From the NCBI GenBank assembly GCA_030039155.1, contig JASHQL010000156.1, positions 162 to 64,161 on the forward strand: a DNA stretch of 64,000 bases. Reading direction: 5' to 3'. The notes below the pieces were generated by a model, which saw nothing but the letters and a program-made list of their open reading frames with translations, searched no databases and was not told the origin of the DNA. Positions 26,324 to 47,491 of this stretch are shown piece by piece. Origin of the DNA: Streptosporangiaceae bacterium. GTDB taxonomy: Bacteria; Actinomycetota; Actinomycetes; Streptosporangiales; Streptosporangiaceae. The number at the start of each line of letters is the position of its first letter. The first letter of the stretch is position 1. Both the position numbers and the translations under genes were made by a program.

Positions 26324-26356
26324 GCCGGTACCGGCCTTCCGTGCGCAGCCTGGGCG

Positions 26357-26385
26357 TTGACGAATCAAATGAACAGATTTTTAAT
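26357..26385 (+). promoter_or_regulatory. candidate sigma70-type promoter for the R2-like/SCP2 operon
   Basis: TTGACG (26357-26362), a 17-nt spacer, then TTTAAT (26380-26385). Lies in an AT-rich patch about 40 nt upstream of RBS aggagg and ATG 26425. Confidence 0.4.
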
Positions 26386-26424
26386 AGCACGTACGAGAAG
26401 CACTGTCAGCAGGAGGCCGCAGGC

Positions 26425-27429
26425 ATGACCGAACGCAAGAGCCCGACGGCTGTGCTGCACGAAGGCCCGCGTGCGCTCACCGACGAGCAGGTCCGCGAGA
26501 TCGAGGAGACCGAGCTCGACGGCGTGCTCGCCGTCGACATCGACGACGTGATCGAGTACGTGCACCGGGACCTGAAGTCGCTGCCCGACTTCATGACGCT
26601 GTACCGCAGGTACCTGAAGCAGCGCTGGGACGTGTACGACCTGGACTTCACCCAGGACAAGATCGACTGGACCGAGAAGATGACCGCCGAGGAGCGTGAG
26701 TCGTTCACCGCCATCTCGTCCGGGTTCCACCACGGTGAGCGGCAGGTGGAGATCGAGCTGCCGGTGTTCATGATCGGCGCGAGCGAGGAGGAGAAGGTCC
26801 ACATCGCCGCGCAGATCGAGGACGAGGCGCGGCACACGGTGTTCTTCGACCGGTTCTACCGCGAGGTCGTCGGCCTGGACGGCGACGACATCATGGACGT
26901 GCTCGACGCGTCGTTCCCCTGGGTGTCGGAGACGTTTGTCGGGCCGTTCGGGCTGCTTGCCTATCAGGCCGACGAGGTGCGGCTCAACCCGTACGACGAG
27001 CGGGCCAGGGTGCGGTACGGCACCACCTACTTCCTGTGGATCGAGGGCGTGCTGGCGCTGTCGGTGATGAAGGTGACGCTGTCCTACGCGCGCTGGCGCG
27101 GGGTCCTGCCCGCCTACTACACCGGCTTCACCGCCACCTGCCGGGACGAGTCGCGGCACGTGCAGGGCGGCATGAAGTACCTGCAGGACGCGGTCCGCAA
27201 GGACCCCACGATGATCCACGAGATCCACAACACGCTGCGCACGATCCTGTCGATGTCGGGGGTGGCCAGCCGCCGGATCTACTTCGAGCCGCTTGGCTGG
27301 ACCGAGGAAGAGGTGAACCTGCTGTTCATCCAGCAGCTCCGCCGCAAGCTCAACGACGTCGGCATCGACCTGGCGCCTGACCTGGAAGAGATGCTCAACT
27401 ACGTCAAGCCAGAGCTGGCAGGCGGCTGA
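26425..27429 (+). CDS. ferritin-like di-metal carboxylate protein, RNR-R2 / R2-like ligand-binding-oxidase family
   Basis: RBS aggagg, then ATG at 26425. ExxH motifs EDEARH and RDESRH. About 334 aa. Confidence 0.7.
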   Translation: MTERKSPTAVLHEGPRALTDEQVREIEETELDGVLAVDIDDVIEYVHRDLKSLPDFMTLYRRYLKQRWDVYDLDFTQDKIDWTEKMTAEERESFTAISSGFHHGERQVEIELPVFMIGASEEEKVHIAAQIEDEARHTVFFDRFYREVVGLDGDDIMDVLDASFPWVSETFVGPFGLLAYQADEVRLNPYDERARVRYGTTYFLWIEGVLALSVMKVTLSYARWRGVLPAYYTGFTATCRDESRHVQGGMKYLQDAVRKDPTMIHEIHNTLRTILSMSGVASRRIYFEPLGWTEEEVNLLFIQQLRRKLNDVGIDLAPDLEEMLNYVKPELAGG

Positions 27430-27432
27430 GCG

Positions 27433-27906
27433 ATGACCGAGCCGAAGTTCTTCACCAAGGAATGGGCCGACGCGGTCAGGGAGGCGCTGATCGCCGGGCC
27501 GCCAGAGCAGGCGCGCGTCGGCAAGCTGCAGGAGTACTGGGACTTCTTCGATCTGGTCAAGAGCCTGTATCCGGCGTCCTGGGCGCTTGGCTGCCGTGAC
27601 CTGCCAGCCGAGCTCGGCGACGGCCCGGCGTACCTGCTCGTGCAGTGGGGCGGCGGCACCGTCAGCAACGCCGCGATCATCGGGCCAGACGAGCCGGTCG
27701 AGGCCACGTTCGTGCTGAACATGGACTACGCGGACTGGAAGGCGCTGCATGAGGGCTATGACGCGCAGCGAACCGTGATGTACCGCAAGATCCTGCTCGA
27801 GGACGGGCCGCTGCTCGAGTTCTTCAAGCCGATCTACTTCTTCGTCGAGTGCCTCGCGGTCATTGGCGCGCTGCCTGCGCAGTACCCGGAGCTGACCAAG
27901 TCGTAA
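27433..27906 (+). CDS. SCP2 sterol/lipid-binding-domain protein
   Basis: Starts 4 nt after the previous stop. FFTKEWADAVREAL and YRKILLEDG-type SCP2 pattern. 157 aa. Confidence 0.6.
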   Translation: MTEPKFFTKEWADAVREALIAGPPEQARVGKLQEYWDFFDLVKSLYPASWALGCRDLPAELGDGPAYLLVQWGGGTVSNAAIIGPDEPVEATFVLNMDYADWKALHEGYDAQRTVMYRKILLEDGPLLEFFKPIYFFVECLAVIGALPAQYPELTKS

Positions 27907-29843
27907 CCGAAGCGGGCTGCAAGCGACTCAGCCTCGGTCCTTGCGCCGTCGATCGTCTGCCCTAGCGCCAGCGAAGGGCGATGCCGTACCGCCGAGCACT
28001 CCAGGCAGAAAGCTTCAAGCAACTCCTCCGGCACCGATGCGGGAATGACAGGCGTGTAGTCGGTCACGAGTGACAGCATCCGGCCGTCGATTGGCAGCAG
28101 CCAGCCCAGGCTCACCAACCTGTCAATGACTGGCAGCGCTTCGTGCTCGGACAACCCGCTGGTCAGGTCGGCCAGCCTTACGCCGCGGTCTGCGCGCTGC
28201 AGGATCTCCAGCGTGCAGCCGTCGATGCGGTCCCTGGCGATAGTTGCGACTGGTCGTGTATCGAAAACCCAGCAGCCGTCCGGTTTCTCAACCCGTAGCA
28301 GAGCGCTTGACTCGTAGCTCGCTTGCCAGTCGTCCACTAGCTCGCGCAGGACCCGCCCGTACTCTTCCGGATCCTTGCCCCCGTCGGGCACAAAGTCAAA
28401 ATAATAGACCAGGTCATTCAGATCATCCATTGGATGACCATAAATGTACTGATATGGCTCCGGTGGCCAGCGCCTGGCCACGCCTAGCGCTCGTCCATTG
28501 AAGTCAAGCGGGCTAAAGCGATCGAGTCGCACGCGGCATGCAAATGGCGGCCGCAGATGATGGAGCATCGGAAGTATCTTGAACATCTCGAGATAGTCTT
28601 GCATGTCTTCTCGAGGGAAGCCGTAGAGCAGGTTCCACATCGGGCGGATGCCCAGTTCTTCACACCATTTCAACAGGCGGATGTTGTGGTAAGCGTCAAC
28701 GCCCTTCCGCATCAGTTTCAGGATCGGCGTGCTGAGGCTCTCGATGCCTGGCTGAACGCACCGTATCCCGGCACTATGCATCAGTTCGACCTGTTCACGG
28801 GTCACTTTCGACTTGATCTCATAGAAGATCTTGGCGGGAAGCTTGCGCTCGGCGAGCGCAGGCAGCAGCGTCCGGAAATAGTGGAAGTCCAGAATGTTGT
28901 CGACCGCATTCACGTTGTTGACGCCGTATTGCAGGGCTGACTCAATATCGTGGATAACGCGCTCCGGGCTCTTGCTGCGGAAGAACAAACTGTCGCCGTT
29001 AAGGCCGCAGAATGTGCAGTGTTGCTGGGCTCCATACCAGCATCCGCGACTGGTCTCGATCGGGATCTCGATGTCACCGCCGGACAGCGGCAGGCGTGCC
29101 TGCTCAATTTGCCTGAACCAGTCCTCGTACCGAGGCGTCGGCAGCGCGTCGAGGTCCTGCCACCTGGCAGGTTTACGGGCTTTCGGCTGAGCGCTGGACA
29201 GCATTCCTGGTATCTGTGTCTCGGGACTGCCGGCGTCGTCAAGGTGCTGGGCCAGGTTCAGGAGCGCGGTTTCGCCTTCGCCGGGGCAGACGTAGTCCAC
29301 GGCGGGGAAGAGTCGCAGCACAGACTCGCCCATGACGTCCTCACATGACGCGCCACCGAGCACAATCTTGGACCGGCCGCCCAGCATCTTGAGGCGCTCC
29401 GCCATCGCCAGGCTTGGCGCGAGGTTGAAGGTCGTGTTGAATCCGACGAGATCGAAGTCGCCTTTGGCGATGCCGAGGCTTTCGTCGCGCACCAGATCGC
29501 GTGCCTCTGCGGCCAGATCTGGGAGTATGTTGATGAGCCATTCCGGTACATTCTTTGCCAGCAGGTGACGTTCGATGACCAGACGCATCGCCGGTTCGAT
29601 TTCGTCGCCATGGCCGGGCCACATGGCCGAGAAAACCATCTCGCCGTATAGCGTCTCTGCAGGCATCTGCTCGGAAGCCATGCGGTAGAGATTCAGTCCG
29701 ATGCGGCGAGCGTACTCGACGTTGAGGTACCTGATCTCGGCAGTGTGGCCGTTCGCCTCCAGGACGCCCCGCAGCAGGCTCAGAGCGATTGATGGTCGGC
29801 TGACTGACTGGAATGGCATTTGCACCAAGACTACGTTGGCCAT
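27834..29843 (-). CDS. B12-binding-domain radical SAM enzyme, RiPP-maturation (C-methyltransferase-like) type, paralog 1
   Basis: Trimmed to ATG at 29843 (MANVVLVQMPFQ). Rossmann-like N-terminal half (KIVLGGASCE). Cluster motif GCWYGAQQHCTFCGLNG. About two-thirds identical by eye to 41517..43475. Confidence 0.85.
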   Translation of the reverse strand: MANVVLVQMPFQSVSRPSIALSLLRGVLEANGHTAEIRYLNVEYARRIGLNLYRMASEQMPAETLYGEMVFSAMWPGHGDEIEPAMRLVIERHLLAKNVPEWLINILPDLAAEARDLVRDESLGIAKGDFDLVGFNTTFNLAPSLAMAERLKMLGGRSKIVLGGASCEDVMGESVLRLFPAVDYVCPGEGETALLNLAQHLDDAGSPETQIPGMLSSAQPKARKPARWQDLDALPTPRYEDWFRQIEQARLPLSGGDIEIPIETSRGCWYGAQQHCTFCGLNGDSLFFRSKSPERVIHDIESALQYGVNNVNAVDNILDFHYFRTLLPALAERKLPAKIFYEIKSKVTREQVELMHSAGIRCVQPGIESLSTPILKLMRKGVDAYHNIRLLKWCEELGIRPMWNLLYGFPREDMQDYLEMFKILPMLHHLRPPFACRVRLDRFSPLDFNGRALGVARRWPPEPYQYIYGHPMDDLNDLVYYFDFVPDGGKDPEEYGRVLRELVDDWQASYESSALLRVEKPDGCWVFDTRPVATIARDRIDGCTLEILQRADRGVRLADLTSGLSEHEALPVIDRLVSLGWLLPIDGRMLSLVTDYTPVIPASVPEELLEAFCLECSAVRHRPSLALGQTIDGARTEAESLAARFGYDLVSSGYCAGSAPMTARHSTKK

Positions 29844-29892: not shown

Positions 29893-31245
29893 TCATGCTG
29901 CCCGCTGCCAGCCGATGCCGTCAGCGGACGGGACCAGGCTGCCCGGCACGACGGCCACAGCGCCCTGGCTGGCCGCTGTGCGGGCAGCGTAGGAATGCTC
30001 GGAGTCACCTGGAACGAGTGCGGGATCGTCAGAAGCTGCACCACCGACGAGTTCTATGAACGCGACAATGTCCGCCAGAGCCGAGCCGGTGAGCCGCTTC
30101 GCCGCCCAGAAGTACGAATGCTCGCTGAGACTCTCGATATAGAACGCTCTGAGGAACTGATAGAAAAACCTGTATTCTGTTCGGTACCTGCGTTCGAACT
30201 CGGCCAGTGCCTGCTCTTCCGGGATCGCGCCGGCCAGGCTGCTGTTGATGGCCCGTGCGGCCAGCAGCGCCCCATAAGTGGCCAGGTGGACACCGGAGGA
30301 GAGAACCGGGTCAACGAAGCACGCGGTGTCGCCGACTAGGACCATGCCAGGCCGGTGAAAGCGATCGTGGCAATACGAGTAGTCGCGCCGGATGCGGACG
30401 TGCCCGTAGGGTCCGTCGGTGACGCGGCTTGCGGTCGACAGATATTGCCTGATCAGCGGGCAGGACGCGATGAGCCCGGCGAGGGCGCCAGCTGGATCTC
30501 CCTGGATGCTGGGCGCGAGGTCACCGGGGATCACCGCGCCGACGCTGGTCAGGGTCGCACTGAGCGGGATGTACCAGAACCAGCCGTTGTCGAATGCTAC
30601 CGACAGGATGTTGCCGGAGTGCGGCTCGGGCAGCCGCTTCCCGTTCTCGAAGTAGCCGAACACGGCGATGTTGCGGAAGAAGTCCGAATAGTGACGCTGA
30701 CCTGCCATCCGGCGATAGATCCGGCTGCGGTGCCCGCAGGCGTCGGCGACGAACCTGGCCAGGGCGGTACGCACCCGGCCGTCATCGTCGGTGTACCTGA
30801 TGCCTTGCACCCGACTCTGCCCGACGACGATGTCAATCGCTGAACATCCTTCATGCACGTCAACCCCGGCGCGCCGGGCGTTGTTGAGGAGGATGGCATC
30901 GAACCGCATCCGTTCGACCTGGTAGGCGTAGGAATTGCCGTGCGAGAAGGCGGGCAGGTCGCGAAATTCGAACGTCCATGGCTCAGGGTTGCTGCCCCAT
31001 CTGAATGTTCCGCCATGCTTCACGATGAAACGGCCGGCTTCAAGTTCGTCGCTAACACCGAGGAGGCGGCATATCCCATGGACAGTGGCCGGCAGCAAAG
31101 ACTCACCGATCTGATATCGCGGGAAGTGCTCCTTTTCCAGCAGCAGAACCCGCTGACCTCGCATGGCCACCAGTGCGGCCAGAGTCGCGCCGGCCGGCCC
31201 GCCGCCAGCCACGATCAGGTCATACCGCTCAGAGGCCAGCGTCAC
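29893..31245 (-). CDS. flavin-dependent halogenase
   Basis: RBS AGGGAG, then GTG at 31245. YDLIVAGGGPAG FAD motif, FPRYQIGESLLP, and the halogenase signature GWFWYIPL (WxWxIP). Confidence 0.8.
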   Translation of the reverse strand: MTLASERYDLIVAGGGPAGATLAALVAMRGQRVLLLEKEHFPRYQIGESLLPATVHGICRLLGVSDELEAGRFIVKHGGTFRWGSNPEPWTFEFRDLPAFSHGNSYAYQVERMRFDAILLNNARRAGVDVHEGCSAIDIVVGQSRVQGIRYTDDDGRVRTALARFVADACGHRSRIYRRMAGQRHYSDFFRNIAVFGYFENGKRLPEPHSGNILSVAFDNGWFWYIPLSATLTSVGAVIPGDLAPSIQGDPAGALAGLIASCPLIRQYLSTASRVTDGPYGHVRIRRDYSYCHDRFHRPGMVLVGDTACFVDPVLSSGVHLATYGALLAARAINSSLAGAIPEEQALAEFERRYRTEYRFFYQFLRAFYIESLSEHSYFWAAKRLTGSALADIVAFIELVGGAASDDPALVPGDSEHSYAARTAASQGAVAVVPGSLVPSADGIGWQRAA

Positions 31246-33772
31246 TGATGGCTCCCTCGATGTTGAGCGCACGGCAGCGCAGCGTACGCAGGATGTCGTC
31301 TTGGCCCTCGGTGAGCAGGCGGCGCAGGGCGGCGGGCGGATCGGTGGTGGCGATGTAGGCATCGGTCGCGTCCACTGTCTGCTGGCTGAATGGGCAGGCC
31401 GGATACAGGCCGGCGACGAAGTCTTGCGCCATTGCGGTTGGCCACGTGCGCCAGACCACATCGATCGCACTGAAATAGTCGTCCAGGTAGGGCTCGGTCA
31501 GCGCACGCTGGTCGGGGTAGGCAAACCCGGCCAGCAGCGCACGGAACAGCGCAAGCGGAAGCTCGCCGCTGGTTAGCTTCCGCCACGCGGCCCGCTTGGC
31601 ATCAGCTGCAGGTATCGCTGCGTGACACGTTGCGGCATGCCGTTCACCGGCATCGGTGGCATCGCGGCTCCGCTCGCGGTCGATCTGGCTGGCCCCGGCC
31701 TTACCCCTGCTGACCAACCTGGTCAGCAGCGTCCAGCGCAGGTCGGTGTCGACGAGCAGACCGCTCAGCGCAGCCGAGCCGTCCAGCAGGCCGGCTAGGA
31801 ACGCCAGGTCATCGTCGCGGGTGGCAACCTCGGCAAGCGCTCGCAGGTACGTGAGCTGAGTGTCTGATCCGGCGGGTGCCTGGCTGAGGAGCCCGCGCAG
31901 CGTCGTGGCAATCAGCTCGAGCCCGGTCTCCTGCCAGGCCGGGTCGGCGTAGCGCCTCACCGCCACGCCGGCCTGGCCGAGCAGAGCTTGCGCCATGCTC
32001 ACGTCGGGGACAGTGCCGACGCCTGAGGCGACGAGCTTGACATATTCGCGCGCTGCCATTTCTCCGTCTCGGCACATGTCCCAGGCGGCAGACCAGCACA
32101 ACGCGGCCGGGAGCGAGTCGGCGAAGCCGCCGATGTTGCCGAGAAGCGTGCGCAGCGACCGCTGGTCGAGCCTGATCTTGGCGTAGCTCAGGTCGTCGTC
32201 GTTCACCAGCAGCAGGTCTGGGCAGGATTCCCCGATCATCGCTGGCAACATCGTCAGTTCGCCGGCGACATCGACCTCGACTCGCCCGGTACGAGCCAGG
32301 GCACCGCATGACCGGTTGTACAGCCCGATGGCTATGCGGTGCGACCGCAGGACTGGGTGCTGTCGCGGAGCTTCCTGCAGGACGGCGAATGAGGTGAAGC
32401 GGCCGGCCTCATCGAGGGTGAACGATGGCCGCAAGGTATTGACCCCAGCAGTTTCCAGCCACTGCCGGGACCAGGAAGTTAGCTCACGGCCTGAGGCTGC
32501 CTCAAGTGCCGAGAGCAGGTCAGCCAGCGTCGCGTTTCCCCATGCGTGCGCGGCAAAGTACCTCCGCACGCCGACCAGGAAGTTCTCCCGACCCACCCAG
32601 GCGACAAGCTGTTTGAGCACAGCCGCGCCCTTGGCGTAGGTGATGCCGTCGAAATTGACCTCGACAGCTGCGATGTCCGGGATGTCGGCTGAGATCGGGT
32701 GCGTGGTGGCCAACTGGTCCTGGCGATACGCCCAGGCCTTGTAGAGCTGGGCGAACGTCGTCCATCCGGACGACCAGCGAGTAGCCTCCACCTCGGCAAG
32801 CGTGCCGGCCCAGGTCGCGAACGACTCATTCAGCCAGAGATCATCCCACCAGCGCATGGTGACCAGGTCGCCGAACCACATGTGCGCCATCTCATGCAGG
32901 ATGGTCTCCGCCCGGCCCTGGCGGACGAAGTCGGTGACCCTAGACCGGAAGAGGAACTGCTCGGTGAACGTCACGGCGCCAGGGTTTTCCATGGCGCCCT
33001 CTTTGAATTCCGGCACGAATAGCTGATCATACTTTCCGAACGGATACTTGGTCCCGAAGATATTGTGAAAGAAACCAAAGCCTTGCTTGGTGATCGTGAA
33101 AATCTCGTCCGGATCAAGATACTCGGCCAGCGACTGGCGGCAGAAAATGCCCAGCGGAATGCCGTCGCACTCGTCCTTTGCCAGGTGATAGGGACCCGCG
33201 GCGACCGCCGTGATGTAAGTTGGCATCGGCGGGGTAGCCGGGAACCTCCAGCAGATCCCGTCCTGAACTGGTTCGGTCAAGTCCGGCGCCATGTTAGAGA
33301 CCACGGTCCAGTCCGCTGGCGCGGTGACTGTGAAGGCGAAGCTGGCCTTCAGGTCGGGTTGATCGAAGCACGCATAGACCCGGTGCGCGTCGAACGCCTC
33401 AAGGTCGGAGTACAGGTACGCCCGACCGTCAGCCGGATCGATAAACCTGTGCAGTCCAGCGCCCGTGCGCGAATACTCGCATTCAGCGTCGACCGCGAGG
33501 ACATTCTCTGCGCACAGACCGGTCAGCGCTATGCGGTGGCCGTCGAATGCTGCCGGGTCCACCGGCTCGCCGTTCAGCGTGATGCGGTGAACGCCGGCGG
33601 CCGTCAAGTTCACGAAGGTCGTGGCATCAGGCGCGCGGCTGCTGAACCTGATCAGGCTTGACGATGCGAATGTGCCGGCCGCGCTGGTCAGGTCGAGGTC
33701 AACCTGGTACGAGTCGACCCGGACAAGCGCGGCACGCTGCCGCGCTTCCTGCAGGGTCAGGTCAGCTGACAT
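31229..33772 (-). CDS. pepN: M1-family aminopeptidase N
   Basis: GAMEN exopeptidase motif (EGAMENPG) and HEMAHMWFGDLVTMRWWDDLWLNESFA (HExxH-x18-E). 847 aa. Confidence 0.9.
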   Translation of the reverse strand: MSADLTLQEARQRAALVRVDSYQVDLDLTSAAGTFASSSLIRFSSRAPDATTFVNLTAAGVHRITLNGEPVDPAAFDGHRIALTGLCAENVLAVDAECEYSRTGAGLHRFIDPADGRAYLYSDLEAFDAHRVYACFDQPDLKASFAFTVTAPADWTVVSNMAPDLTEPVQDGICWRFPATPPMPTYITAVAAGPYHLAKDECDGIPLGIFCRQSLAEYLDPDEIFTITKQGFGFFHNIFGTKYPFGKYDQLFVPEFKEGAMENPGAVTFTEQFLFRSRVTDFVRQGRAETILHEMAHMWFGDLVTMRWWDDLWLNESFATWAGTLAEVEATRWSSGWTTFAQLYKAWAYRQDQLATTHPISADIPDIAAVEVNFDGITYAKGAAVLKQLVAWVGRENFLVGVRRYFAAHAWGNATLADLLSALEAASGRELTSWSRQWLETAGVNTLRPSFTLDEAGRFTSFAVLQEAPRQHPVLRSHRIAIGLYNRSCGALARTGRVEVDVAGELTMLPAMIGESCPDLLLVNDDDLSYAKIRLDQRSLRTLLGNIGGFADSLPAALCWSAAWDMCRDGEMAAREYVKLVASGVGTVPDVSMAQALLGQAGVAVRRYADPAWQETGLELIATTLRGLLSQAPAGSDTQLTYLRALAEVATRDDDLAFLAGLLDGSAALSGLLVDTDLRWTLLTRLVSRGKAGASQIDRERSRDATDAGERHAATCHAAIPAADAKRAAWRKLTSGELPLALFRALLAGFAYPDQRALTEPYLDDYFSAIDVVWRTWPTAMAQDFVAGLYPACPFSQQTVDATDAYIATTDPPAALRRLLTEGQDDILRTLRCRALNIEGAISDAGL

Positions 33773-33789: not shown

Positions 33790-34434
33790 CTAGCTGGCGA
33801 GCAGCATTCGCACCGATCCCAGCAGCCTGAGCCCAGCCTGACGGCGCTCGCCTTCGGCCGCGCCCAGCAGTCGTGCCACCTCAATGAGGTCGCAGAGTTC
33901 GCTGGTGGCCGAGGTAAGCAGCGACCGCGCGGCCCGGCTCCGCTGCACGATCCGCAACGCCGCGGCGGACTGCGTCGCGAACAGCGATAGCAACTCCAGT
34001 TGGGTCAGCTGAGACCGGCTGAGCTGCTGAGAGTCAAGAACCTCGAGGACGCCGATGGGTTCCTCATCGCAGATCACCGGGCTCGCCATCAGCGTGGCCG
34101 GCACGTAGTTCGTGGACTCCGCGATCTCTTTGGCGAACCGGTCATCGCCGTCCAGGTTGTCGACGATGACTGGCTGGCCTGACTCGAGCACCCACCCGGC
34201 GATGCCCCTGCTGGCCGGAAACCGCGTCCCGACGAGGAAGTCTGCTCCTTCGCCGGCCACGGCCTCGAACACCAGGTCGCCACTCGCGGTGTCGAGCAGG
34301 AAGATCGAACTGGCCGCTGCGTCGAAGATGGCACGCGCGGTGAGCACCACTGAATCCAGGAGCATGCGCTGATCTTCTTCAGAATCGAGCACAGCCAGCG
34401 ACATTGCCGCAGCCAGGGCGTTGTTATTGGTCAT
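33790..34434 (-). CDS. GAF-domain protein with short helical C-terminal extension
   Basis: ATG at 34434 overlaps the S8 stop (ATGA). The GAF-like core runs from SSIFLLDTASGDLVFEAVAG through RGIAGWVLESGQPVIV to PIGVLEVLD. No ANTAR or HTH seen. Confidence 0.75.
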   Translation of the reverse strand: MTNNNALAAAMSLAVLDSEEDQRMLLDSVVLTARAIFDAAASSIFLLDTASGDLVFEAVAGEGADFLVGTRFPASRGIAGWVLESGQPVIVDNLDGDDRFAKEIAESTNYVPATLMASPVICDEEPIGVLEVLDSQQLSRSQLTQLELLSLFATQSAAALRIVQRSRAARSLLTSATSELCDLIEVARLLGAAEGERRQAGLRLLGSVRMLLAS

Positions 34435-35267
34435 CGGGCACCTCGCACATTCGCGGCCGTGAGGTACAGCATGTTCTTGACCTGGAAGGCGGTCAGCTCG
34501 GGATTCTTGCTCAGAATCAATGCGCAATAGCCGGCGATGTGCGGGGTGGCAAAGCTGTTTCCGGTGCAGCGGCGCGTGCCGCCGCCAAGCCATGCCACTT
34601 CCACGTCGACTCCGTGCGCGAAGAACTCAACAGGCGGATGCGGGTTATAGAAGAACTGGCCACTATCTCCGGTGTCATGGCTGCCGACGGAAATGACCGA
34701 GGAGAAGCGCCAGGGATAACTCTCGACTCTGAGGTTGTGCGCCGAGGCGACAAGCGCGGTCTTGCGGAAGTAAGCGTCGTCGGCCAGCACGCGAAGGGCA
34801 TCGGCAAATTTCTGCCTCGTCGTGGAGAGGCTGAGGTTGACGACGTCGAACCGCTGCGCTACGGCCCACGCCAAGCCAGCCATGAGGGCGTCGCCGGTGC
34901 CAGAAAGGCCATGACTCAGTACTCGGACGCTATGAATCTCGCAGTCCGGCGCTACCGAGCGCACGACGCCGGCGCACGCCGTACCGTGACCGCTCAGGTC
35001 GTCTGCTCCGACCGGCACAACTGCCCACCCGCCGTCGGCCTGCCGCTCGACGGCATGCGACCCCTGAACCGGCCCGACTCGTGGATGGCCGCCTTCTACG
35101 CCGCTGTCGACGATGCAGACGCGGACGCCACTTCCGGTAGCGTCGCCCCACGCCTCATGCGCAGTCACCGGAGATGGCCATCTGGTGGCCTCGGCCAGGT
35201 TTGCGCGATCGCGGCCGACGATGTTCCAGGTGAGGGGCGGCCTGGCCAGCCGCGTGGTGTCCATCAC
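34431..35267 (-). CDS. S8-family (subtilisin-like) serine peptidase without signal peptide
   Basis: Catalytic triad motifs VDSGV, HGTACAG and GNSFATPH. GTG at 35267 or ATG at 35264. The start overlaps the upstream stop. Confidence 0.85.
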   Translation of the reverse strand: MMDTTRLARPPLTWNIVGRDRANLAEATRWPSPVTAHEAWGDATGSGVRVCIVDSGVEGGHPRVGPVQGSHAVERQADGGWAVVPVGADDLSGHGTACAGVVRSVAPDCEIHSVRVLSHGLSGTGDALMAGLAWAVAQRFDVVNLSLSTTRQKFADALRVLADDAYFRKTALVASAHNLRVESYPWRFSSVISVGSHDTGDSGQFFYNPHPPVEFFAHGVDVEVAWLGGGTRRCTGNSFATPHIAGYCALILSKNPELTAFQVKNMLYLTAANVRGAR

Positions 35268-38200: not shown

Positions 38201-38335
38201 GCCGACCAGATCGCAGAACAGCACAGTGACGGTCTTGCGAATTGTCAGGCCCTGCTCCCGCCGAGCTCGTTCGCCGCACGACGGGCAGAACTTAGCCTTG
38301 GCCGGCAGCTCTGTCAGGCAGGTCGCGCAGAGCAC
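35267..38335 (-). CDS. zinc-ribbon / class III adenylate-guanylate cyclase / AAA(STAND) ATPase / TPR-like multidomain protein
   Basis: GTG at 38335. CATCLTELPAKAKFCPSCG. Cyclase motifs FCDLVGST, YIGDAVMAVFG, GVNTGPVV and GETVNLAARLE. Walker A GDAGIGKSRL and Walker B LVLVLDDMH. Long Ala/Leu-rich helical repeat tail. No C-terminal HTH. Confidence 0.85.
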   Translation of the reverse strand: MLCATCLTELPAKAKFCPSCGERARREQGLTIRKTVTVLFCDLVGSTELSRALDPEPLRELMLRYFDLMSSCIERHGGVVEKYIGDAVMAVFGVPVVHEDDALRAVRAAAQMRQALVGLNAEAAKDLHVTLDVRIGVNTGPVVAAYDLAAAATLVSGETVNLAARLEQHANAGEILLGPLTRKALDGVADQEAAAPLTLKGFAHQITPGRLVSVSDGAPAIPRRFDLPMVNRLDEMAALRHAYSLAVRDCSCQLVTLYGDAGIGKSRLAAEFTAWARSASALVADGSCPGYGTGGSLLALAEAVRKLLAQWDQPTHPDAEVAEALAMLRAGLLADDSPGISPAETVWALRRVLGEIGRGRPLVLVLDDMHMAGQELVNAVNGLAARLSGVAVTVLWLARPETPTQERARNGHRPNARADMLRPLSDDDCRVLAAKLDEVMAHDAELAERAVARAEGNPLYLEQVINVARSGTSEAMPVSINGLISYRLDLLATSERRILGLAAVVGRDFTAAELAAIAEDDLAARLAKGLAALVQRRLIRQIAAWPAATYRFDSALIHEVAYDSMPKGWRAAGHERLAAWLSASGGDAEIAGTHWERAWLLGREVGTPEATRSQLADRAIDALRSAGNRALGSGDPRHASGLLGRALQLCAADDQRLAELLLRAGEAALMAGEIEAGRRDLAAARDRALAGHNPAIKAHAEMQLAYLGQPRQFSASVKAARQALPVFEQAGDYLGVARAWLRIGVAKQSKGRHASAVRALSLALDQAIRLDAALEQATVLGALGVSLWAGPLAAAQAIARCRDLLGAHAVTHRTVRAALLCPLAMLAAMAAEHDQAHAFLVEAGHIVSGLDNARAHVALPIFVGATRLMAGDLESAESIVRRAYIDSKDLGDLQLTETAARDLARIQLLRGHLAEAAELAFAPVSDDMPAAAADRRGVQARTMARQGLTHEVGQLSALALAASRRTDSPEVRATACLDTAIALHDLGDRAGSADMARQAATWFSRKGHVVGVGWARQLLEGR

Positions 38336-38363
38336 GTCGGCTTCGCCTCTCGGTCGTCCGGCG

Positions 38364-40201: not shown

Positions 40202-41464
40202 TTAGGTAACAGCTTCCGGCTGCCCGCGCTGCTTCTTCTGCTCCGATCTCAACGTGCTGAGCTTGCGGGAGGCCAGCACGGCTGAGGCCATGGCTACTGC
40301 GACCGCGGCCACCCCGGCGATGACGAACGTTGGCCGCGGACCGAATGCCTGTCCTATCGTGCCGCCAAGCACCAGGGCCACGACCATGCCGACCTGAACA
40401 AGGCCATTGAGCGACGCGATTGCCTTGCCCCGGTCCGCCTCGGGAGTGCGGCCGATCAGCACCGCACCGAAAGTGGCGTTGAGCGCGGTATTCGCCAGGC
40501 CGATGAGGAGGCCGAAGCAGAGGTAGACCGCGAAGTCCGGGGACAGGCCTGCGCCGATGCAGCCGAGCCCGACGAGCGCGAATCCAGCGAAGGTGATGGT
40601 CACTTGCCACGTGACCGCCTTGGCCCTGGCCGCGACCACCGAGCCAGCCACTCCGCCGACCGCCGCGGCGATCTCCGATAGTCCGTACAGGGACGCAGAG
40701 GTATGCAGGGACACGCGGACGAGGAAGACATCGACGACGTTCACGCCGCCGATCACCACGATCGTCGCGGTGAGTGCCCACATCATCGGCCAGACTATTG
40801 CGTCCTGCCTGATCGCGGAGAAGCCAGCAAACACCCTGGTGAAGGCTCTGGCGGCAGACGGCCGAGTGATGCCTTCCCGGTGTCCGGAGCGACGGGTTTG
40901 CACCAGCATCGCAGCGCAGGTCAGCAGCGCAAACGTAGCGGTGTCGACGAGCACGGCGGTGCGCATGCCAGTCAGTCCGAACAGCAGCCCGCCCAGGCCG
41001 GCACCGGCTGGGGCACCGACCGCGGCAAGACCGGACTGCAAGGCCACGAAGCTGCCGATCTTGTCTTCGCCCACGACTCTGGGCATCAGCGCCGTCCAGG
41101 TGGGCACAGTGAACGCCTGGCCAACCTGGATGGCGAAGACGAGCAGGAATACCGCGACCAGGTCGGAGGTGAAGGCAAGCGCGCAGCAGGCTAGCGTCTG
41201 CGCCGCCGTCGCGATGGCGAGCACGGTCCTGGAGTCGTAGGTGTCCGCAACATGGCCTGCGATACCTATCAGCAGCACCAGTGGCAGTGACTCCACGCCC
41301 AGCATCACTGCCACTGGCCAGATACCGATATGGGCACGCTCGAGGTACAGCAGCAACACGATGGCCAGCACGCTGTCCCCGAGCAGCGAGACGGCACGCG
41401 CCGGTACCACGATCCGGACATCGCGGATGCGCCAGAGCTGTCGTGGCGGGGCCTGCTCGGTCAC
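40202..41464 (-). CDS. MFS transporter
   Basis: GTG at 41464, 9 nt after RBS GGAAGGAG. About 12 hydrophobic helices, for example LLGDSVLAIVLLLYL and GVAAVAVAMASAVLA. Confidence 0.8.
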   Translation of the reverse strand: MTEQAPPRQLWRIRDVRIVVPARAVSLLGDSVLAIVLLLYLERAHIGIWPVAVMLGVESLPLVLLIGIAGHVADTYDSRTVLAIATAAQTLACCALAFTSDLVAVFLLVFAIQVGQAFTVPTWTALMPRVVGEDKIGSFVALQSGLAAVGAPAGAGLGGLLFGLTGMRTAVLVDTATFALLTCAAMLVQTRRSGHREGITRPSAARAFTRVFAGFSAIRQDAIVWPMMWALTATIVVIGGVNVVDVFLVRVSLHTSASLYGLSEIAAAVGGVAGSVVAARAKAVTWQVTITFAGFALVGLGCIGAGLSPDFAVYLCFGLLIGLANTALNATFGAVLIGRTPEADRGKAIASLNGLVQVGMVVALVLGGTIGQAFGPRPTFVIAGVAAVAVAMASAVLASRKLSTLRSEQKKQRGQPEAVT

Positions 41465-41516
41465 CTCACTCACCTCCTTCCTGGCCGGTCCGGCCGGGTC
41501 GCGGTGCCGAGCGGCT

Positions 41517-43475
41517 TCAGGGCACCGGCAGGTAGTCCGGCCGCCGTGCCAGCAGTGACCGGGCATCCGCCAGGTCAGCCGGTGAACCGGGCAGTACGCT
41601 CGAGATCGCGCGATGACGGATGGTGGCTAGCTCTAGGCAGTAGTCCTCCAGCAAGCCTGGGGGCAGCGACTTGGGGACCACGGGCGTGTAGTTGACGATC
41701 AGCGAGAGGATCCGGTCATCCACCTCGAGCAGCCAACCGATGTCCAGCAGCCCGGCTAGGGCTTTGACGCCAGCATCCCCTGCCCCGTCAAGCAGGTCGG
41801 CACGGCGCACACCGCGGTCGGACCGCTGGACGAGGTCAAGCTCGAGCGGCTCGAGGCAGCGCCGTGCCACCAGCGCGCCTGGCCTGGTATCAAACACCTG
41901 GCATCCGTCTGGCGTCTCGGCGCGCAGCAGTGCGCTGCCCGGATACTCGTCGCGCCACTCCTGCACGATCGAGTTCAGCACTACCCCATACTCTTCAGGG
42001 TTGTTGCCGTCGTCCGGTTCGAACTCAAAGTAGTAGGCCAGGTCGTCCAGTGCTGAGTCCGGCAGGCCGTAGACGAGCCGGTAAGCCCTGGACGGCCTGC
42101 GGTTGGCGACCCCCAGGGCCTTCCCGTCAAAGTGCAGCGGGCTGAACCGGTCCAGGCGCACCCGCCCGCCGGCTTCCGGCGGCTGCAGGTGGAAGAGTCG
42201 AGGCAGCATGCCGAACATTTGCAGGTAATCCTGCTTGCGCTCACGCGGGAACCCGTACAGCAGGTTCCAGGTCGCGGCAATGCCCAGCTCCTCTCCCCAT
42301 TTGAGCAGCCGGATGTTGTGGTACGCCTGCACACCCTTGCGCATGAGCATGAGCACCGGCGTGCTCATGCTCTCAATCCCCGGCTGAACGCTGCGGATGC
42401 CCGCCCGGCGCATGAGCACCAGCTGATCCCTGGTGACCTTGGACTTGATCTCATAGAACAGGTGCGCAGAGTGCTCGCGTTTGGCCAGTTCCGGTAGCAC
42501 CGTGCGGAAGTAACGGAAATCAAGGATGTTGTCCACCGCGTGTACGTTCTGGATACCGTACGAAAGCGCGGCGTGGATCTCCCGCAGCACATTGTCCGGG
42601 CTCTTGCTGCGGAACTGGAGGTTCTCTCCGTTCAGCCCGCAGAAGGTGCAATGCTGCTGCGCCCCGTACCAGCAGCCCCGGCTGGTCTCGATCGGGATCA
42701 GCAGCTCTGACTCCGCTATGCCGAGGTCGGCGCGGGCGAGCTGGCCAAGCCAGTCTTCAAACCGCGGCTGCGGCAACGCGTCCAGGTTCTGTGGCGGAAC
42801 AGGCCTGGCAACGCTCGGATGCGCGCGGGACAGCATCCCGGGGATGGCCGTGGCGTCGTCGGCGTGCCGTGCGATGGCGTTCGCCAGATTGAGCAGCGCC
42901 TGCTCGCCTTCGCCTGGGCAGACGTAGTCCACCCAGGGAAAGAGTCGCATCACGGCCGCGCCCATGCCCGCTTCGCAGGAGGCGCCGCCGAGCACAACCG
43001 GCACGCTCGGGTTGGCCGCCTTGAAATAGCGGGCCATCGACAGACTAGGCGCCAAGTTGAAGGTGGTGCTGAAGCATACGAGGTCGAAGCGGCGGTCGAT
43101 GATCTTCCGGCTCTCGGTACTGACGAGGTCGCGTGCCTCCGCCACCAGCGCAGGCAGGAGCTGCCCGATCCACGGGGGAACCCGCTTCCAGGCCGAATAG
43201 CGCGCTAGCTCCTCAGGGCTAGGCTCCCGGTCCTGCCCATCAGGATCCAGCCAGACCGGGGCGAACACGAGGTCGCTGAGGAGAATGTCGGCAGGCAGCC
43301 GCTCAGAGATCGTGGTGTAGAGGTTGACGCCGATGCGGCGGGCGAACTTCATGTTCAGGTAGCTGATTTCGACTATGTGGCCGTGCTGCTCGAGCACCGC
43401 TCGCAGCAGGCTCGGGCCGAGCGCGGGCCTGCGGACAGCCTGGAACGGCATCTGCGGGAACAAGATCCTGGTCAT
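41517..43475 (-). CDS. B12-binding-domain radical SAM enzyme, RiPP-maturation type, paralog 2
   Basis: MTRILFPQMPFQ, VVLGGASCE and GCWYGAQQHCTFCGLNG. Collinear similarity to 27834..29843 along the whole length. Confidence 0.85.
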   Translation of the reverse strand: MTRILFPQMPFQAVRRPALGPSLLRAVLEQHGHIVEISYLNMKFARRIGVNLYTTISERLPADILLSDLVFAPVWLDPDGQDREPSPEELARYSAWKRVPPWIGQLLPALVAEARDLVSTESRKIIDRRFDLVCFSTTFNLAPSLSMARYFKAANPSVPVVLGGASCEAGMGAAVMRLFPWVDYVCPGEGEQALLNLANAIARHADDATAIPGMLSRAHPSVARPVPPQNLDALPQPRFEDWLGQLARADLGIAESELLIPIETSRGCWYGAQQHCTFCGLNGENLQFRSKSPDNVLREIHAALSYGIQNVHAVDNILDFRYFRTVLPELAKREHSAHLFYEIKSKVTRDQLVLMRRAGIRSVQPGIESMSTPVLMLMRKGVQAYHNIRLLKWGEELGIAATWNLLYGFPRERKQDYLQMFGMLPRLFHLQPPEAGGRVRLDRFSPLHFDGKALGVANRRPSRAYRLVYGLPDSALDDLAYYFEFEPDDGNNPEEYGVVLNSIVQEWRDEYPGSALLRAETPDGCQVFDTRPGALVARRCLEPLELDLVQRSDRGVRRADLLDGAGDAGVKALAGLLDIGWLLEVDDRILSLIVNYTPVVPKSLPPGLLEDYCLELATIRHRAISSVLPGSPADLADARSLLARRPDYLPVP

Positions 43476-43495: not shown

Positions 43496-45268
43496 TCAGA
43501 CCGCGTCCGCGAGCTGTGGCACGCGGATGCGTCGCACTGTCTTCTTCTTCGTGTCGGCTGAGTAGAGCCAGTGACCGCGGCGGGCGGCCTCGAGATCGGC
43601 AAGCGGCCTGGTATCGAGGCCGGTGCAGTCAAGCCAGCTGAGCAACGGCGTCTGCGGATCGAGCAGCACGCTGACACCAAGCCAGTGCTCGAATTCCAGG
43701 ACCTGCAGCAGGACCTCGGTTCGTTCCTGGCCAAGGCCGAGGTGGCCGAGGAACTGCCGGAGCTCCGCATACACGCGCGATGCGCCAGTGGCCGGGTCGA
43801 ATGCCTGGGTAGCCGCAGACGGCGTGCCGCGCTCCTCGTGCCGCACCCAGCGCACGAACTCGGTGCCGAGCTCCGGGCCGAGCAGATCCCAGAGCAATCG
43901 CAGAGTGTTTCCGAACGGTCCCAGGTGCAGGATGAACCAGTAGATGTATCGGTAATGCGCGCGCGAGGTGTACTCGTTGGGAAAGTAGTAGAAGCTGCTG
44001 AAGATTCTTGGGTACCGGCGGATCTGCTCTTCCTCCCATGGCGTGACGGTCCACATGACCGCTACATCATTCAGGCGGCCGTCGAACTGCAACTGGTCTT
44101 CGTACTCGGCGGTCAGCTCGGTGCCGGCTAGCGGCGACAGTGAGTGAACTTGAACGTTGCGCATGGCCGGGCGCCACGAGCGAAATTCGAAGTAGAGATT
44201 CAGCGTGTCGGCAAGGTCGTCCGGGGTCTCGGCTGGGAAGCCGATGATCAGCGAGGCAGTTACGCCGATCTGGCGCTCCCACGCGGACCGCACCGCGATC
44301 TTGATGTCCGCTACCTTCAGGCCCTTCTTGATGGCCTGCTGCATGTTTTCCGAGCCCGACTCGACGCCGAAGAAGATCCGGCGGCATCCGGCTTCGTACA
44401 TCAGGTCAAGCAGGCTGTCGTCGATCCGGTCGGTGCGGGCACTGCACGCCCAGTCAAGGTGGAGATCTTCGCTGATCAGCCGTTTGCAGAGGTCCGCTAC
44501 CAGCCTGCGGTTCGTCGTGAACATGTCGTGCACGAACTCGAAATGGCTGCTGGCATGCTGCTCTCGCACCTTCTGCAGCTCGGCGATGATCATGTCGGCG
44601 CTGCGGAAGCGGAACCGGCGCTGGAAGAAAACCTTCGTCGAGCAGAACGTGCACTTATACGGGCAGCCGCGGCCGATCTCGACCGAGACTCCGCGGGCCC
44701 CCCCGTCAATTGGCGGTGGTGTGAGCGTGTAGTCGATGGGCCGGATGTCGTCGGCATCGATCAGCTGCGCTGGCTGGAGCTGCAGCGGGAGCAGCGTCAG
44801 GCGCGAAGCGCCTGGCGGGATGTAGATAAGGCCGGGGCGCACTGAGCGCTGACCGGTCGTGATCGCTTCCCAGAGGAACGTCACGACACTTTCCGCCTCG
44901 CCGATGACGATTCCGTCGATGAATTCATAGGCGGCCATGAGTTCACCGGGCACGCTGCTGGCCTGGGGCCCGCCGAGCACGACAGGCAAGCGGGGATGAA
45001 GTTCCTTGATCCGTTTCGCCAACGTCAGTGTCCGGGGCAGCGTGCCGCAGATCGTGCCAAGGCCAACCAGCCCAACATCCGGGCCGATGTGCAGGCCCGC
45101 AAGGAACTCTTCGAGATCGGTGTTGTCGGATGGCAGATAGTGAATGTCGACAGTCAGTCCGTGGTCTTCTTTGAGAATCGTGCCGACGACCATGACGCCC
45201 AGCGGCATCTCAGCCTGAAACTCGTCAGCTGTGCTGTTGACGAGTATCGCTCTGCTGCTGGGCGTCAC
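43496..45268 (-). CDS. class-B (B12-binding) radical SAM enzyme, distinct subfamily
   Basis: GTG at 45268, 4 nt after the upstream stop. B12-domain pattern PVVLGGPQAS. Canonical cluster GRGCPYKCTFCS. Confidence 0.85.
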   Translation of the reverse strand: MTPSSRAILVNSTADEFQAEMPLGVMVVGTILKEDHGLTVDIHYLPSDNTDLEEFLAGLHIGPDVGLVGLGTICGTLPRTLTLAKRIKELHPRLPVVLGGPQASSVPGELMAAYEFIDGIVIGEAESVVTFLWEAITTGQRSVRPGLIYIPPGASRLTLLPLQLQPAQLIDADDIRPIDYTLTPPPIDGGARGVSVEIGRGCPYKCTFCSTKVFFQRRFRFRSADMIIAELQKVREQHASSHFEFVHDMFTTNRRLVADLCKRLISEDLHLDWACSARTDRIDDSLLDLMYEAGCRRIFFGVESGSENMQQAIKKGLKVADIKIAVRSAWERQIGVTASLIIGFPAETPDDLADTLNLYFEFRSWRPAMRNVQVHSLSPLAGTELTAEYEDQLQFDGRLNDVAVMWTVTPWEEEQIRRYPRIFSSFYYFPNEYTSRAHYRYIYWFILHLGPFGNTLRLLWDLLGPELGTEFVRWVRHEERGTPSAATQAFDPATGASRVYAELRQFLGHLGLGQERTEVLLQVLEFEHWLGVSVLLDPQTPLLSWLDCTGLDTRPLADLEAARRGHWLYSADTKKKTVRRIRVPQLADAV

Positions 45269-45272
45269 CTCG

Positions 45273-46241
45273 TCAGACCTCGCCGTAGTACAGGGCCCGT
45301 AGCGTGTCGACCTGATCTCGGATTCTCTCGGCCGCGGCGTTCACCTTCGACTTGTTCTCCTCCTGCAGGAGCAGATGGCATGAACCGCACGGAGACCTCG
45401 CCAGAACCTCGTCATCAGGGTCGTCCCTGATGACGCCCGATTGGACGGCAAGCTGCCGCGCGCCGATGGTCCTGATCGTCTGCAACACACGACTATTACT
45501 GCGGGCATCCACCGCGTCCTTCAGCGGCGTGTTCTTCACATGCCCGAACCTGAGGTCATGGGGCCCGCGGACATACATGCTCTCGCCGCAGCAGCCGAAG
45601 ATCCCCCCGGTGCTGCGGATCATGAGCGTGGAGGCAGCAAGGCAAGGTTCGCGCTCCGGGAACATGGGGAAGACGCCGGGCTTCAGCTTGGTCGCGCGGC
45701 CAACCCGCATGACGCCGGAGAAGTGCACCCGCATGCGCTCGTCGTCGGTACCGAGGCCAAGTTCCTTGAGGATCTCCTCGAATTCCTCGCCTTCGGTATA
45801 GGTATATCGGATTACCGCGTCGATGCCGAGTTCCCTGGCCTCCTGCAGTGCGCGGCCTATGGCTCGCCTTGGAACGGCGGTTGCGTGATAGACATCGGCG
45901 CTGATGCCGAGTTTGCGCACGTCCAGGATCGAGTGCAGCACCTGCTGGCGTTCGGTGGAATCAACGGACCACGTGCCGTTGGTCGTCACCGAGTAGGCTA
46001 GGCCGAGGTCGCGGACGAGGCCGATCGCGTAGTAGAGCAGGTCTCGGACGTAGAAGACCTCGCCGCCGGTGAACCCTACTTCCGCCAGCGGATCGATCTC
46101 CTTGACCTGTTCAAGGACCGCCTTCAAGTATCCGCGGTCCAGCTTCGTCGTCACCTTTGGTGATGAGTTTGTCGAGCAATGCTGACACGCGAGATCACAA
46201 GACTCGGTCAGCTGGACCCCGACGCGGAGATTCTCGAACAT
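45273..46241 (-). CDS. radical SAM enzyme with C-terminal auxiliary-cluster-like Cys motifs (twitch/SPASM-like)
   Basis: ATG at 46241. CDLACQHC (CxxxCxxC) and GFTGGE. C-terminal Cys motifs EREPC, GIFGCCGE and SPCGSCH. Confidence 0.8.
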   Translation of the reverse strand: MFENLRVGVQLTESCDLACQHCSTNSSPKVTTKLDRGYLKAVLEQVKEIDPLAEVGFTGGEVFYVRDLLYYAIGLVRDLGLAYSVTTNGTWSVDSTERQQVLHSILDVRKLGISADVYHATAVPRRAIGRALQEARELGIDAVIRYTYTEGEEFEEILKELGLGTDDERMRVHFSGVMRVGRATKLKPGVFPMFPEREPCLAASTLMIRSTGGIFGCCGESMYVRGPHDLRFGHVKNTPLKDAVDARSNSRVLQTIRTIGARQLAVQSGVIRDDPDDEVLARSPCGSCHLLLQEENKSKVNAAAERIRDQVDTLRALYYGEV

Positions 46242-46322: not shown

Positions 46323-46553
46323 TTAGCTGACGTATACCGCCCCCACGCGGATCGCGGACTGGTCCATCATGTGCGCGGTGACGAGGTCCGATTCCTCGAC
46401 TTCGCTGATGTTGAGATCTCGCAGCATTGCCTTCTCGTGGTCGGTCAGTTCGAGTTCGCCCAGCGCCGCCGTCGAGTCAGCGCGGAACGCGTCGCGGAAG
46501 CTCTCGTCGGTCAGCAGCTGATTGATGACCTGCTTCACTACCTGGGATGACAC
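46323..46553 (-). CDS. candidate RiPP precursor peptide (76 aa) with LigA/NHLP-clan-like helical leader
   Basis: RBS GAGGAG 7 nt upstream of GTG at 46553. VSSQVVKQVINQLLTDESFRDAFRADSTAALGELELTDHEKAMLRDLNISEVEESDLVTAHMMDQSAIRVGAVYVS. It is the first gene of the collinear cluster, 81 nt upstream of a radical SAM gene. Confidence 0.65.
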   Translation of the reverse strand: MSSQVVKQVINQLLTDESFRDAFRADSTAALGELELTDHEKAMLRDLNISEVEESDLVTAHMMDQSAIRVGAVYVS

Positions 46554-47456: not shown

Positions 47457-47491
47457 CGAAATCGTCCCGTTCTGGCGTCCAGCATACCGAG

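Follow-up and report, generated by a model that had tools for sequence, protein, structure and literature searches.

A halogenase gene of the CndH/CepH lineage in a proteusin-like peptide cluster of a Streptosporangiaceae bacterium, and its candidate tyrosine substrate

CndH, a flavin-dependent halogenase (FDH), acts on a tyrosine-type phenol ring. Tcp21 and VhaA, of the same CndH/CepH lineage, are also active on tyrosine-type phenol rings, and the substrates of this group are tethered to carrier proteins of non-ribosomal peptide synthetases (NRPS) (PMC12615548). Among peptides that are made on ribosomes and then modified post-translationally (RiPPs), the characterised halogenases listed in a review and a preprint, both of 2025, are MibH, SrpI, ChlH and a lanthipeptide brominase, all of which act on Trp (PMC12615548; bioRxiv 10.1101/2025.01.12.632611); in a 2026 halogenase catalogue, MibH is the sole RiPP enzyme mentioned. 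Here, we describe a halogenase gene located at positions 29893..31245 (minus strand) of a 64-kb stretch of DNA from a Streptosporangiaceae bacterium (GCA_030039155.1, contig JASHQL010000156.1), hereafter called the window, in an operon that also encodes a putative RiPP precursor of 76 residues. The reading that we favour, with a probability of roughly 0.6, is that a tyrosine FDH of NRPS lineage was recruited into a rare proteusin-type actinobacterial RiPP pathway where, as we infer from lineage and precursor sequences, it would chlorinate Tyr74 of the precursor.

By its sequence, the window halogenase belongs to the CndH/CepH lineage, is without the nearby carrier partner of that group and is unrelated to the known RiPP halogenases. 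It is 56% identical to CndH and about 60–65% identical to the CepH/Tcp21-type enzymes of the lineage, which also includes BhaA and VhaA; K76, the motif for flavin adenine dinucleotide (FAD) and the WxWxIP motif are aligned, and the extra C-terminal lid domain typical of Trp halogenases is absent from the window enzyme as it is from this group. The difference lies in the neighbours, which in the window are RiPP genes. With MibH (NAI-107), ChlH (chlorolassin) and the proteusin brominase SrpI, the window enzyme has in common that it is an FDH encoded within a RiPP cluster, and the resemblance to SrpI extends to a precursor leader of the NHLP clan and a candidate residue near the C-terminus. However, these three are Trp-modifying enzymes of Trp-halogenase lineages, to which the window enzyme has no significant similarity, and the window precursor lacks Trp.

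The polytheonamide and landornamide proteusin clusters share with the window an NHLP-clan leader and TIGR03975 C-methyltransferases, and their epimerase-type radical S-adenosylmethionine (radical-SAM) enzyme may have its equivalent in a putative epimerase of the window; landornamide also has an arginase-family gene, which here is found in related loci rather than in the window. Unlike these proteusins, the window has a short Os1348-type precursor of 76 residues with a marginal leader match and a very short core, apparent leader removal by S8 and M1 peptidases, a conserved pair of cyclase/ATPase and GAF genes, and a radical-SAM enzyme that is nearest to YydG, below the cut-off. For the arginase-family protein of the related loci, the closest PDB entries are agmatinases, and its 60 best matches there do not include the peptide arginase OspR. 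The maturation system of quinohaemoprotein amine dehydrogenase (QhpG, QhpE and QhpD) likewise combines a halogenase-fold flavoprotein, a subtilisin-like protease, radical-SAM enzymes and a small peptide, but QhpG is a Trp dihydroxylase (PMC7876137), all window matches to this system are below the curated cut-offs and the window has no dehydrogenase subunits. No published account of the cluster, or of a Tyr-directed RiPP halogenase, was found in a literature search that left subscription-only papers outside its reach.

The halogenase and its place in the family

The halogenase open reading frame (ORF) encodes 450 residues. The sequence-only reading of the window had named two signatures, GGGPAG and WxWxIP, and both are read in the translation: a FAD motif of the GxGxxG type, G14-G-G-P-A-G19, and the segment G221-WFWYIPL228, that is W222-F-W224-Y-I226-P227. 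Residues 41–52 (F41 to P52) read FPRYQIGESLLP. The candidate for the catalytic Lys, for which a check had been proposed, is present as K76 inside FIVKHGGTFRWG and is aligned with K76 of CndH in FPIKRGGTFRWG, the equivalent of K79 in PrnA. K76 is invariant in the short subclade described below and in 71 aligned relatives, and G14, G15, G16, P17, G19 and WFWYIP are invariant in the same 71 sequences. An intact catalytic Lys together with WxWxIP separates halogenases from monooxygenases, and the window protein is a genuine FDH with intact catalytic motifs.

The match to the halogenase family is far beyond chance, given the 204.1 bits obtained with Pfam PF04820 (Trp_halogenase, cut-off 21) and the 505 bits obtained with CndH (PDB 3e1t; E = 2e-150, 56% identity over 404 residues). 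Among PDB sequences, the next scores are those of FasV (8zop, 251 bits), CmlS (220), RadH (144) and PltA (119). Low scores were obtained for Thal (25 bits), PrnA (20), QhpG (7ctq, 22) and digeranylgeranylglycerophospholipid reductase (3oz2, 53), and MibH is not among the 60 best-matching PDB sequences. The earlier proposal of a phenol/pyrrole-type rather than a Trp halogenase is thus upheld by 505 bits for CndH versus at most 25 for Trp enzymes, and can be narrowed to the CndH/CepH tyrosine lineage; the grouping with monooxygenases or geranylgeranyl reductases, without the Lys, that had been named as the contrary outcome was not seen.

An AlphaFold2 model built from the 71 sequences has a pLDDT (predicted local distance difference test) of 87.4 and a pTM (predicted template modelling score) of 0.90; it repeats an earlier model built from eight sequences, which had a pLDDT of 49.3. 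When the model was submitted to Foldseek, CndH (3e1t) came first, with template modelling scores of 0.81/0.83, followed by FasV, CmlS, Bmp2, RadH, ChlB4, PltA and Mpy16, and the 14 best PDB chains were all phenol/pyrrole FDHs. The order of the fold search is that of the sequence scores. The entry 8zop is named FasV in the fold search; the code 8ZOP occurs in no searchable paper.

The databases contain seven proteins of 447–474 residues that are 69–76% identical to the window halogenase, and thousands of actinobacterial proteins of about 490–510 residues that are about 60–65% identical to it; many of the latter are labelled CepH, and the Actinoplanes teichomyceticus enzyme is one of them. The phylogenetic placement that had been suggested as a check was made with a neighbour-joining tree rooted on FasV, which puts the window halogenase with the CndH/CepH tyrosine lineage. 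The window enzyme and the seven short proteins form a monophyletic clade (P0001–P0008), whose sister group is the large CepH/Tcp21-like clade; CndH takes the basal position. Four substitutions are fixed in the short clade relative to its sister clade (S97L, K287R, F315L and S332A). The short clade is also without about 42 residues ahead of the C-terminal motif LVPSxDGxxW, the motif itself being kept; the sister clade retains the segment. A scan of metagenome contigs with the subclade alignment gave no further member of the subclade, and its matches were used as a sister-clade control.

NRPS genes were sought in the visible DNA by the A3, A8, C3 and PCP motifs of adenylation, condensation and carrier domains. 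There are 0 matches in the 64-kb window, so the carrier-protein partner whose absence had been put forward for checking is indeed not seen within this distance. The three main related loci are L001 (Streptosporangiaceae bacterium NEAU-GS5), L002 (a contig of an Actinomycetota metagenome-assembled genome, GCA_030155785.1) and L003 (a Joint Genome Institute metagenome contig). They have no A3, A8 or PCP match, and a single isolated C3-pattern match, in L002, is the only one among the subclade loci. NRPS motifs do occur in L096, L099, L104, L110 and L118, five contigs that rank among the longest from the sister clade (53–64% identity). All short-subclade members with readable neighbours lie among peptide-tailoring genes (M1, arginase-family, B12 radical-SAM or JmjC-like). 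Where the tree divides, the genomic context thus changes as well, from NRPS genes in the sister clade to RiPP genes in the subclade.

More distant FDH relatives, of about 41% identity, were considered as a second link to RiPPs, as they lie beside B12 radical-SAM genes, and were dropped, their other neighbours being BamE-like and lipid-A acyltransferase genes. In L132 (5-6020), and also in L131, L133, L140, L141 and L144, such relatives lie between two B12 radical-SAM genes in a context that looks lipid-modifying.

The precursor and the candidate substrate

The core had been described as free of Trp, which was confirmed for the window precursor and for all five precursors now available. The window precursor lacks Trp and contains a single Tyr (Y74) besides two His (H39 and H61); its C-terminal core is ...AHMMDQSAIRVGAVYVS. 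Its pass with the leader model NF038399 is marginal, and with TIGR04509 it scores 30.1 bits, below the cut-off of 34. In a set of 5.8 billion database proteins there are just four clusters of such precursors, R69 and Y74 being invariant in all of them; a fifth, frameshifted copy is found in L002. All five of the precursors (5/5) end in AH[ML]M[DY]QSAIRVG[AS]VY[VI][ST]; the Tyr does not vary, Trp is absent, and the invariant residues of the window precursor include His61, Arg69 and Tyr74. In L002 (8-276), the precursor is split over two frames, with the leader in one and ...MLADLNISGVEESGLVVAHLMYQSAIRVGAVYVT in the other, owing to an assembly error or because it is a pseudogene; the same assembly, GCA_030155785.1, also has a second, intact precursor and a longer version of the cluster on contig L088.

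The claim that the gene lies in a RiPP-like operon is borne out by the NHLP-clan precursor, the TIGR03975 enzymes, the YydG-like enzyme and conserved synteny. The operon genes are listed below in the order of transcription.

46323..46553, minus strand: precursor peptide, 76 residues, NHLP-clan (Os1348-type) leader; NF038399, 40.6 bits (cut-off 40)
45273..46241, minus strand: YydG-like radical-SAM enzyme, 322 residues, putative peptide epimerase; TIGR04078, 82 bits (below the cut-off of 300)
43496..45268, minus strand: B12-binding radical-SAM enzyme, 590 residues, nearest model ApyD; NF050148, 251.7 bits (cut-off 750); Pfam B12-binding and Radical_SAM
41517..43475, minus strand: B12-binding radical-SAM RiPP C-methyltransferase no. 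1, 652 residues; TIGR03975, 531.5 bits (cut-off 281.85)
40202..41566, minus strand: MFS transporter, probable exporter; Pfam MFS_1, 100.9 bits
39407..40042, minus strand: LuxR/GerE-family response-regulator-like transcription factor; Pfam GerE, 63 bits
38364..39209, minus strand: haem-oxygenase-like iron redox enzyme (PF14518), 281 residues; Pfam, 39.9 bits
35267..38464, minus strand: adenylate/guanylate cyclase with AAA_16 ATPase, about 1065 residues, start codon uncertain; Guanylate_cyc and AAA_16
34431..35267, minus strand: subtilisin-like S8 serine protease, 278 residues; Peptidase_S8, 93 bits; orthologues 76–80% identical in L001–L003
33790..34593, minus strand: GAF-domain protein; Pfam GAF, 60.6 bits; orthologues of 213–223 residues, 72–73% identical, in L001–L003
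31229..33772, minus strand: M1-family aminopeptidase (PepN-like), 847 residues; TIGR02412, 1016 bits
29893..31245, minus strand: flavin-dependent halogenase, CndH/CepH tyrosine-phenol lineage, 450 residues; PF04820, CndH match, tree, AlphaFold2 and Foldseek
27834..29843, minus strand: B12-binding radical-SAM RiPP C-methyltransferase no. 2, 669 residues; TIGR03975, 549.7 bits (cut-off 281.85)

Tyr74 would most likely be the halogenation target, because the characterised relatives named above for the lineage act on tyrosine-type phenol rings. The formation of HOCl from FADH2, O2 and halide and its guidance by a Lys are established chemistry for FDHs. In the proposed pathway, a flavin reductase would deliver FADH2 to the halogenase, which would form HOCl with O2 and chloride (or bromide). 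Lys76 would steer the HOCl to an electron-rich aromatic ring, presumably that of Tyr74, an invariant residue and the only Tyr, which lies close to the precursor C-terminus at a distance of three residues, and the product would be 3-chloro- or 3,5-dichloro-tyrosine. What we infer for this particular cluster is which residue serves as substrate, which halide is used, when the reaction takes place with respect to leader removal, and any translational coupling that the overlap may bring about. From their family membership, the YydG-like radical-SAM enzyme would make D-residues, C-methylation would fall to the three B12 radical-SAM enzymes, the leader would be cut off and trimmed by the S8 and M1 peptidases, and the MFS protein would export the product.

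Several points weigh against Tyr74 as the substrate. The Tyr is common to all known precursors, and the halogenase to all complete clusters; with no precursor lacking the one and no complete cluster lacking the other, the link between them is beyond a co-variation test. His61 shows the same invariance as Tyr74. The halogenase gene is 15 kb away from the precursor gene, with regulators in between, and by position alone it could have a separate role. The scanned island genes included no recognisable flavin reductase. The members are few, eight halogenases and five precursors, mostly on short metagenomic contigs. Finally, the glycopeptide relatives can need a beta-hydroxylated Tyr or a thioester-tethered substrate (PMC12615548), so that a peptide-bound Tyr would be a real change of substrate.

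It is possible, though in our view unlikely, that the enzyme is a halogenase of the RiPP pathway with another target (His61, a modified residue or a pre-modified Tyr), or that a cryptic halogenation drives a later cyclisation or elimination and leaves an end product free of halogen. The invariance of His61 equals that of Tyr74, but we know of no FDH that halogenates histidine. The radical-SAM enzymes of the cluster, four in number, and its iron redox enzyme speak for a modified target, as does the requirement of the vancomycin enzyme VhaA for beta-hydroxylated Tyr (PMC12615548). In L085, L086 and L089, either the halogenase or the precursor has JmjC/cupin-like genes at its side, which points in the same direction, but the window has no JmjC gene, and the characterised enzymes of the lineage, Tcp21 and VhaA as cited above and CndH, act on tyrosine-type phenols.

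We give still less credit to the possibility that the halogenase is a passenger of the island and serves a carrier-tethered Tyr, or a small phenol, made elsewhere in the genome, in which case its place behind the aminopeptidase gene would mean nothing for the biosynthesis. Such a role would be in line with the need of the nearest characterised relatives for carrier-bound substrates (PMC12615548) and with the 15 kb that separate the gene from the precursor, in a genome of which 64 kb are visible. Yet the block M1–(arginase)–halogenase is kept in L001, L002, L003 and L085 with frames that overlap or lie close together, and the subclade stands apart from the NRPS-linked clade, minus the C-terminal residues (about 42) which that clade keeps. 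No NRPS motif set is present in the window or in the subclade loci, the one C3-pattern match in L002 aside, whereas full sets are found in the loci of the sister clade.

A flavin monooxygenase resembling halogenases that would, in the manner of QhpG, hydroxylate an aromatic residue of a peptide, together with the radical-SAM enzymes and a QhpE-like S8 protease, is very improbable: the NCBIfam models for QhpG and, on the S8 protease, QhpE do give 144.7 and 102 bits, and the QhpG fold is halogenase-like and nearest to CmlS (PMC7876137), but both scores are under the cut-offs (240 for QhpG, NF049967; 165 for QhpE), 7ctq obtains 22 bits versus 505 for CndH, and K76 and WxWxIP are intact and invariant.

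Recruitment of an NRPS-lineage FDH that would chlorinate Tyr74 is accordingly the reading we retain. The wider proposal has about even odds in our estimation: this would be the first FDH to halogenate Tyr in a ribosomal peptide, an NRPS-type enzyme captured with loss of a C-terminal segment, and its products would form an undescribed and very rare family of short actinobacterial peptides, so densely modified as to resemble non-ribosomal ones; they would contain chlorotyrosine, D-residues and C-methyl groups and, in some cases, ornithine.

The M1–halogenase junction and related loci

The M1 ORF ends at 31229, stop included, and overlaps the halogenase start by 17 nt, as the sequence-only reading had it for the gene called pepN. 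The GTG start codon it had chosen, at 31245, is also seen on the minus strand, with a Shine–Dalgarno-like element 6 nt ahead (GAGGGAG-CCATCA-GTG); the sequence at the start is ATCGAGGGAGCCATCAGTG. The frame is open upstream as far as 31470. Position 31245 is preferred because the starts of homologues fall within a few residues of this GTG (alignments from residues 1–9), the alignment with CndH begins at residue 4, and a separate gene call on JASICE010000433.1 (GCA_030044795.1) agrees in both start and length. A start at the next in-frame GTG would truncate the Rossmann beta-1 strand. Downstream, C-methyltransferase no. 2 starts 49 nt after the halogenase stop.

M1 copies that are 67–74% identical occupy the same place in L001–L003. 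Because of this conserved position and an island-like composition, the M1 gene is counted, on sequence grounds, as a conserved member of the cluster and not as a housekeeping neighbour; its product is probably the leader-trimming peptidase. Overlapping or closely spaced frames are common in the operon, and in L001 the M1 and arginase genes overlap by 4 nt and the arginase and halogenase genes by 8 nt. An arginase-family gene stands between M1 and the halogenase in four related loci (L001, L002, L003 and L085). A tblastn search of the whole window gave no counterpart of this gene, and the direct M1–halogenase junction is specific to the window genome. The C-terminal tail of the window M1 protein is ...CRALNIEGAISDAGL, versus ...CRARDREEAR in the relatives, and the DNA ahead of the window halogenase start (31229-31290) resembles the arginase–halogenase spacer of L002 (AxCATCGAGG), a short similarity. 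Both the different tail and the spacer-like DNA fit a deletion, but are only suggestive of a loss of the arginase gene in the window that would have created the 17-nt overlap. Arg69 of the window precursor is still conserved despite the missing arginase gene.

In L001–L003, the gene order is cyclase/ATPase – S8 – GAF – M1 – arginase-family – halogenase, and each protein of the block shares 59–80% identity with the corresponding window protein. Just upstream of the block, L001 and L002 have the precursor and the YydG-like gene. Among the short contigs, L085 carries arginase – halogenase – JmjC-like, and L087 carries an ABC fragment – B12 radical-SAM – halogenase – serine hydrolase. The best PDB match of the window YydG-like enzyme is YydG itself (69.6 bits), and orthologues that are 65–80% identical adjoin the precursor in L001, L002, L088 and L089. 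Some relatives have two 322-residue YydG-like genes around the precursor (L001 1-253 and 882-1859; L089 181-1149 and 2396-3364), and in L001 the precursor gene and the main operon are transcribed in divergent directions. A JmjC/cupin-like gene is an extra in L089 and in L085/L086, with none in the window. Orthologues of the PF14518 enzyme are found in the longer versions of the cluster (L003 1187-1966; L088 13431-14279).

The cyclase/ATPase protein, 59–71% identical in L001–L003, is a probable regulator; it scores 150 bits with the TOMM kinase/cyclase model TIGR03903, below the cut-off. Its gene and that of the small GAF protein (window 33790-38464) lie side by side in all larger related loci, with maturase genes on one side and peptidase genes on the other, and the two resemble a dedicated pair for cyclic-nucleotide signalling within the cluster. 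The true start of the GAF protein is probably near 34434, for about 214 residues. As a family anchor in a scan of genome contigs, the cyclase/ATPase was rejected: it gave only relatives of about 27–46% identity, none linked to other cluster genes. The S8 protease, a candidate for the leader endoprotease, has as its nearest NCBIfam models QhpE (102 bits, cut-off 165) and mycosin, and reaches the cut-off of neither.

Between 46553 and 27834, every gene is on the minus strand, and the low-GC island that contains them measures about 20 kb. GC content is 58–70% over an island of about 26–47 kb, versus 71–74% in the flanks, and GC at third codon positions (GC3) is 0.72–0.83 in the cluster versus 0.88–0.93 in the flanks; the halogenase and M1 genes (M1 GC3 0.79) share the island composition. 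These lower values suggest that the island was acquired horizontally. An OLD-like TOPRIM protein is encoded at its upstream edge (46794-47543, minus strand). A minus-strand ORF of 461 residues (26365-27750), considered as the last operon gene, has codon-position GC values of 0.93/0.38/0.65 and is the antisense shadow of a plus-strand gene, so that the operon ends with C-methyltransferase no. 2. That plus-strand gene, at 26341-27429 (GC3 0.93), converges on the operon end inside the low-GC island; it matches weakly the ribonucleotide-reductase small-chain (ferritin-like di-iron) family.

Implications

If Tyr74 is indeed the substrate, carrier-independent halogenation of a peptidyl Tyr would add a residue to the enzymatic tools for late-stage peptide halogenation and cross-coupling, and the cluster would be a clear case of a tailoring enzyme that moved from non-ribosomal to ribosomal pathways. 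The four fixed substitutions and the deletion of about 42 residues offer a handle on what carrier-protein dependence requires. The cluster is a compact target for heterologous expression, which would give a new type of hypermodified peptide, and the gene, which lends itself to experiment, is a candidate for the first enzyme to halogenate a peptidyl tyrosine in ribosomal peptides.

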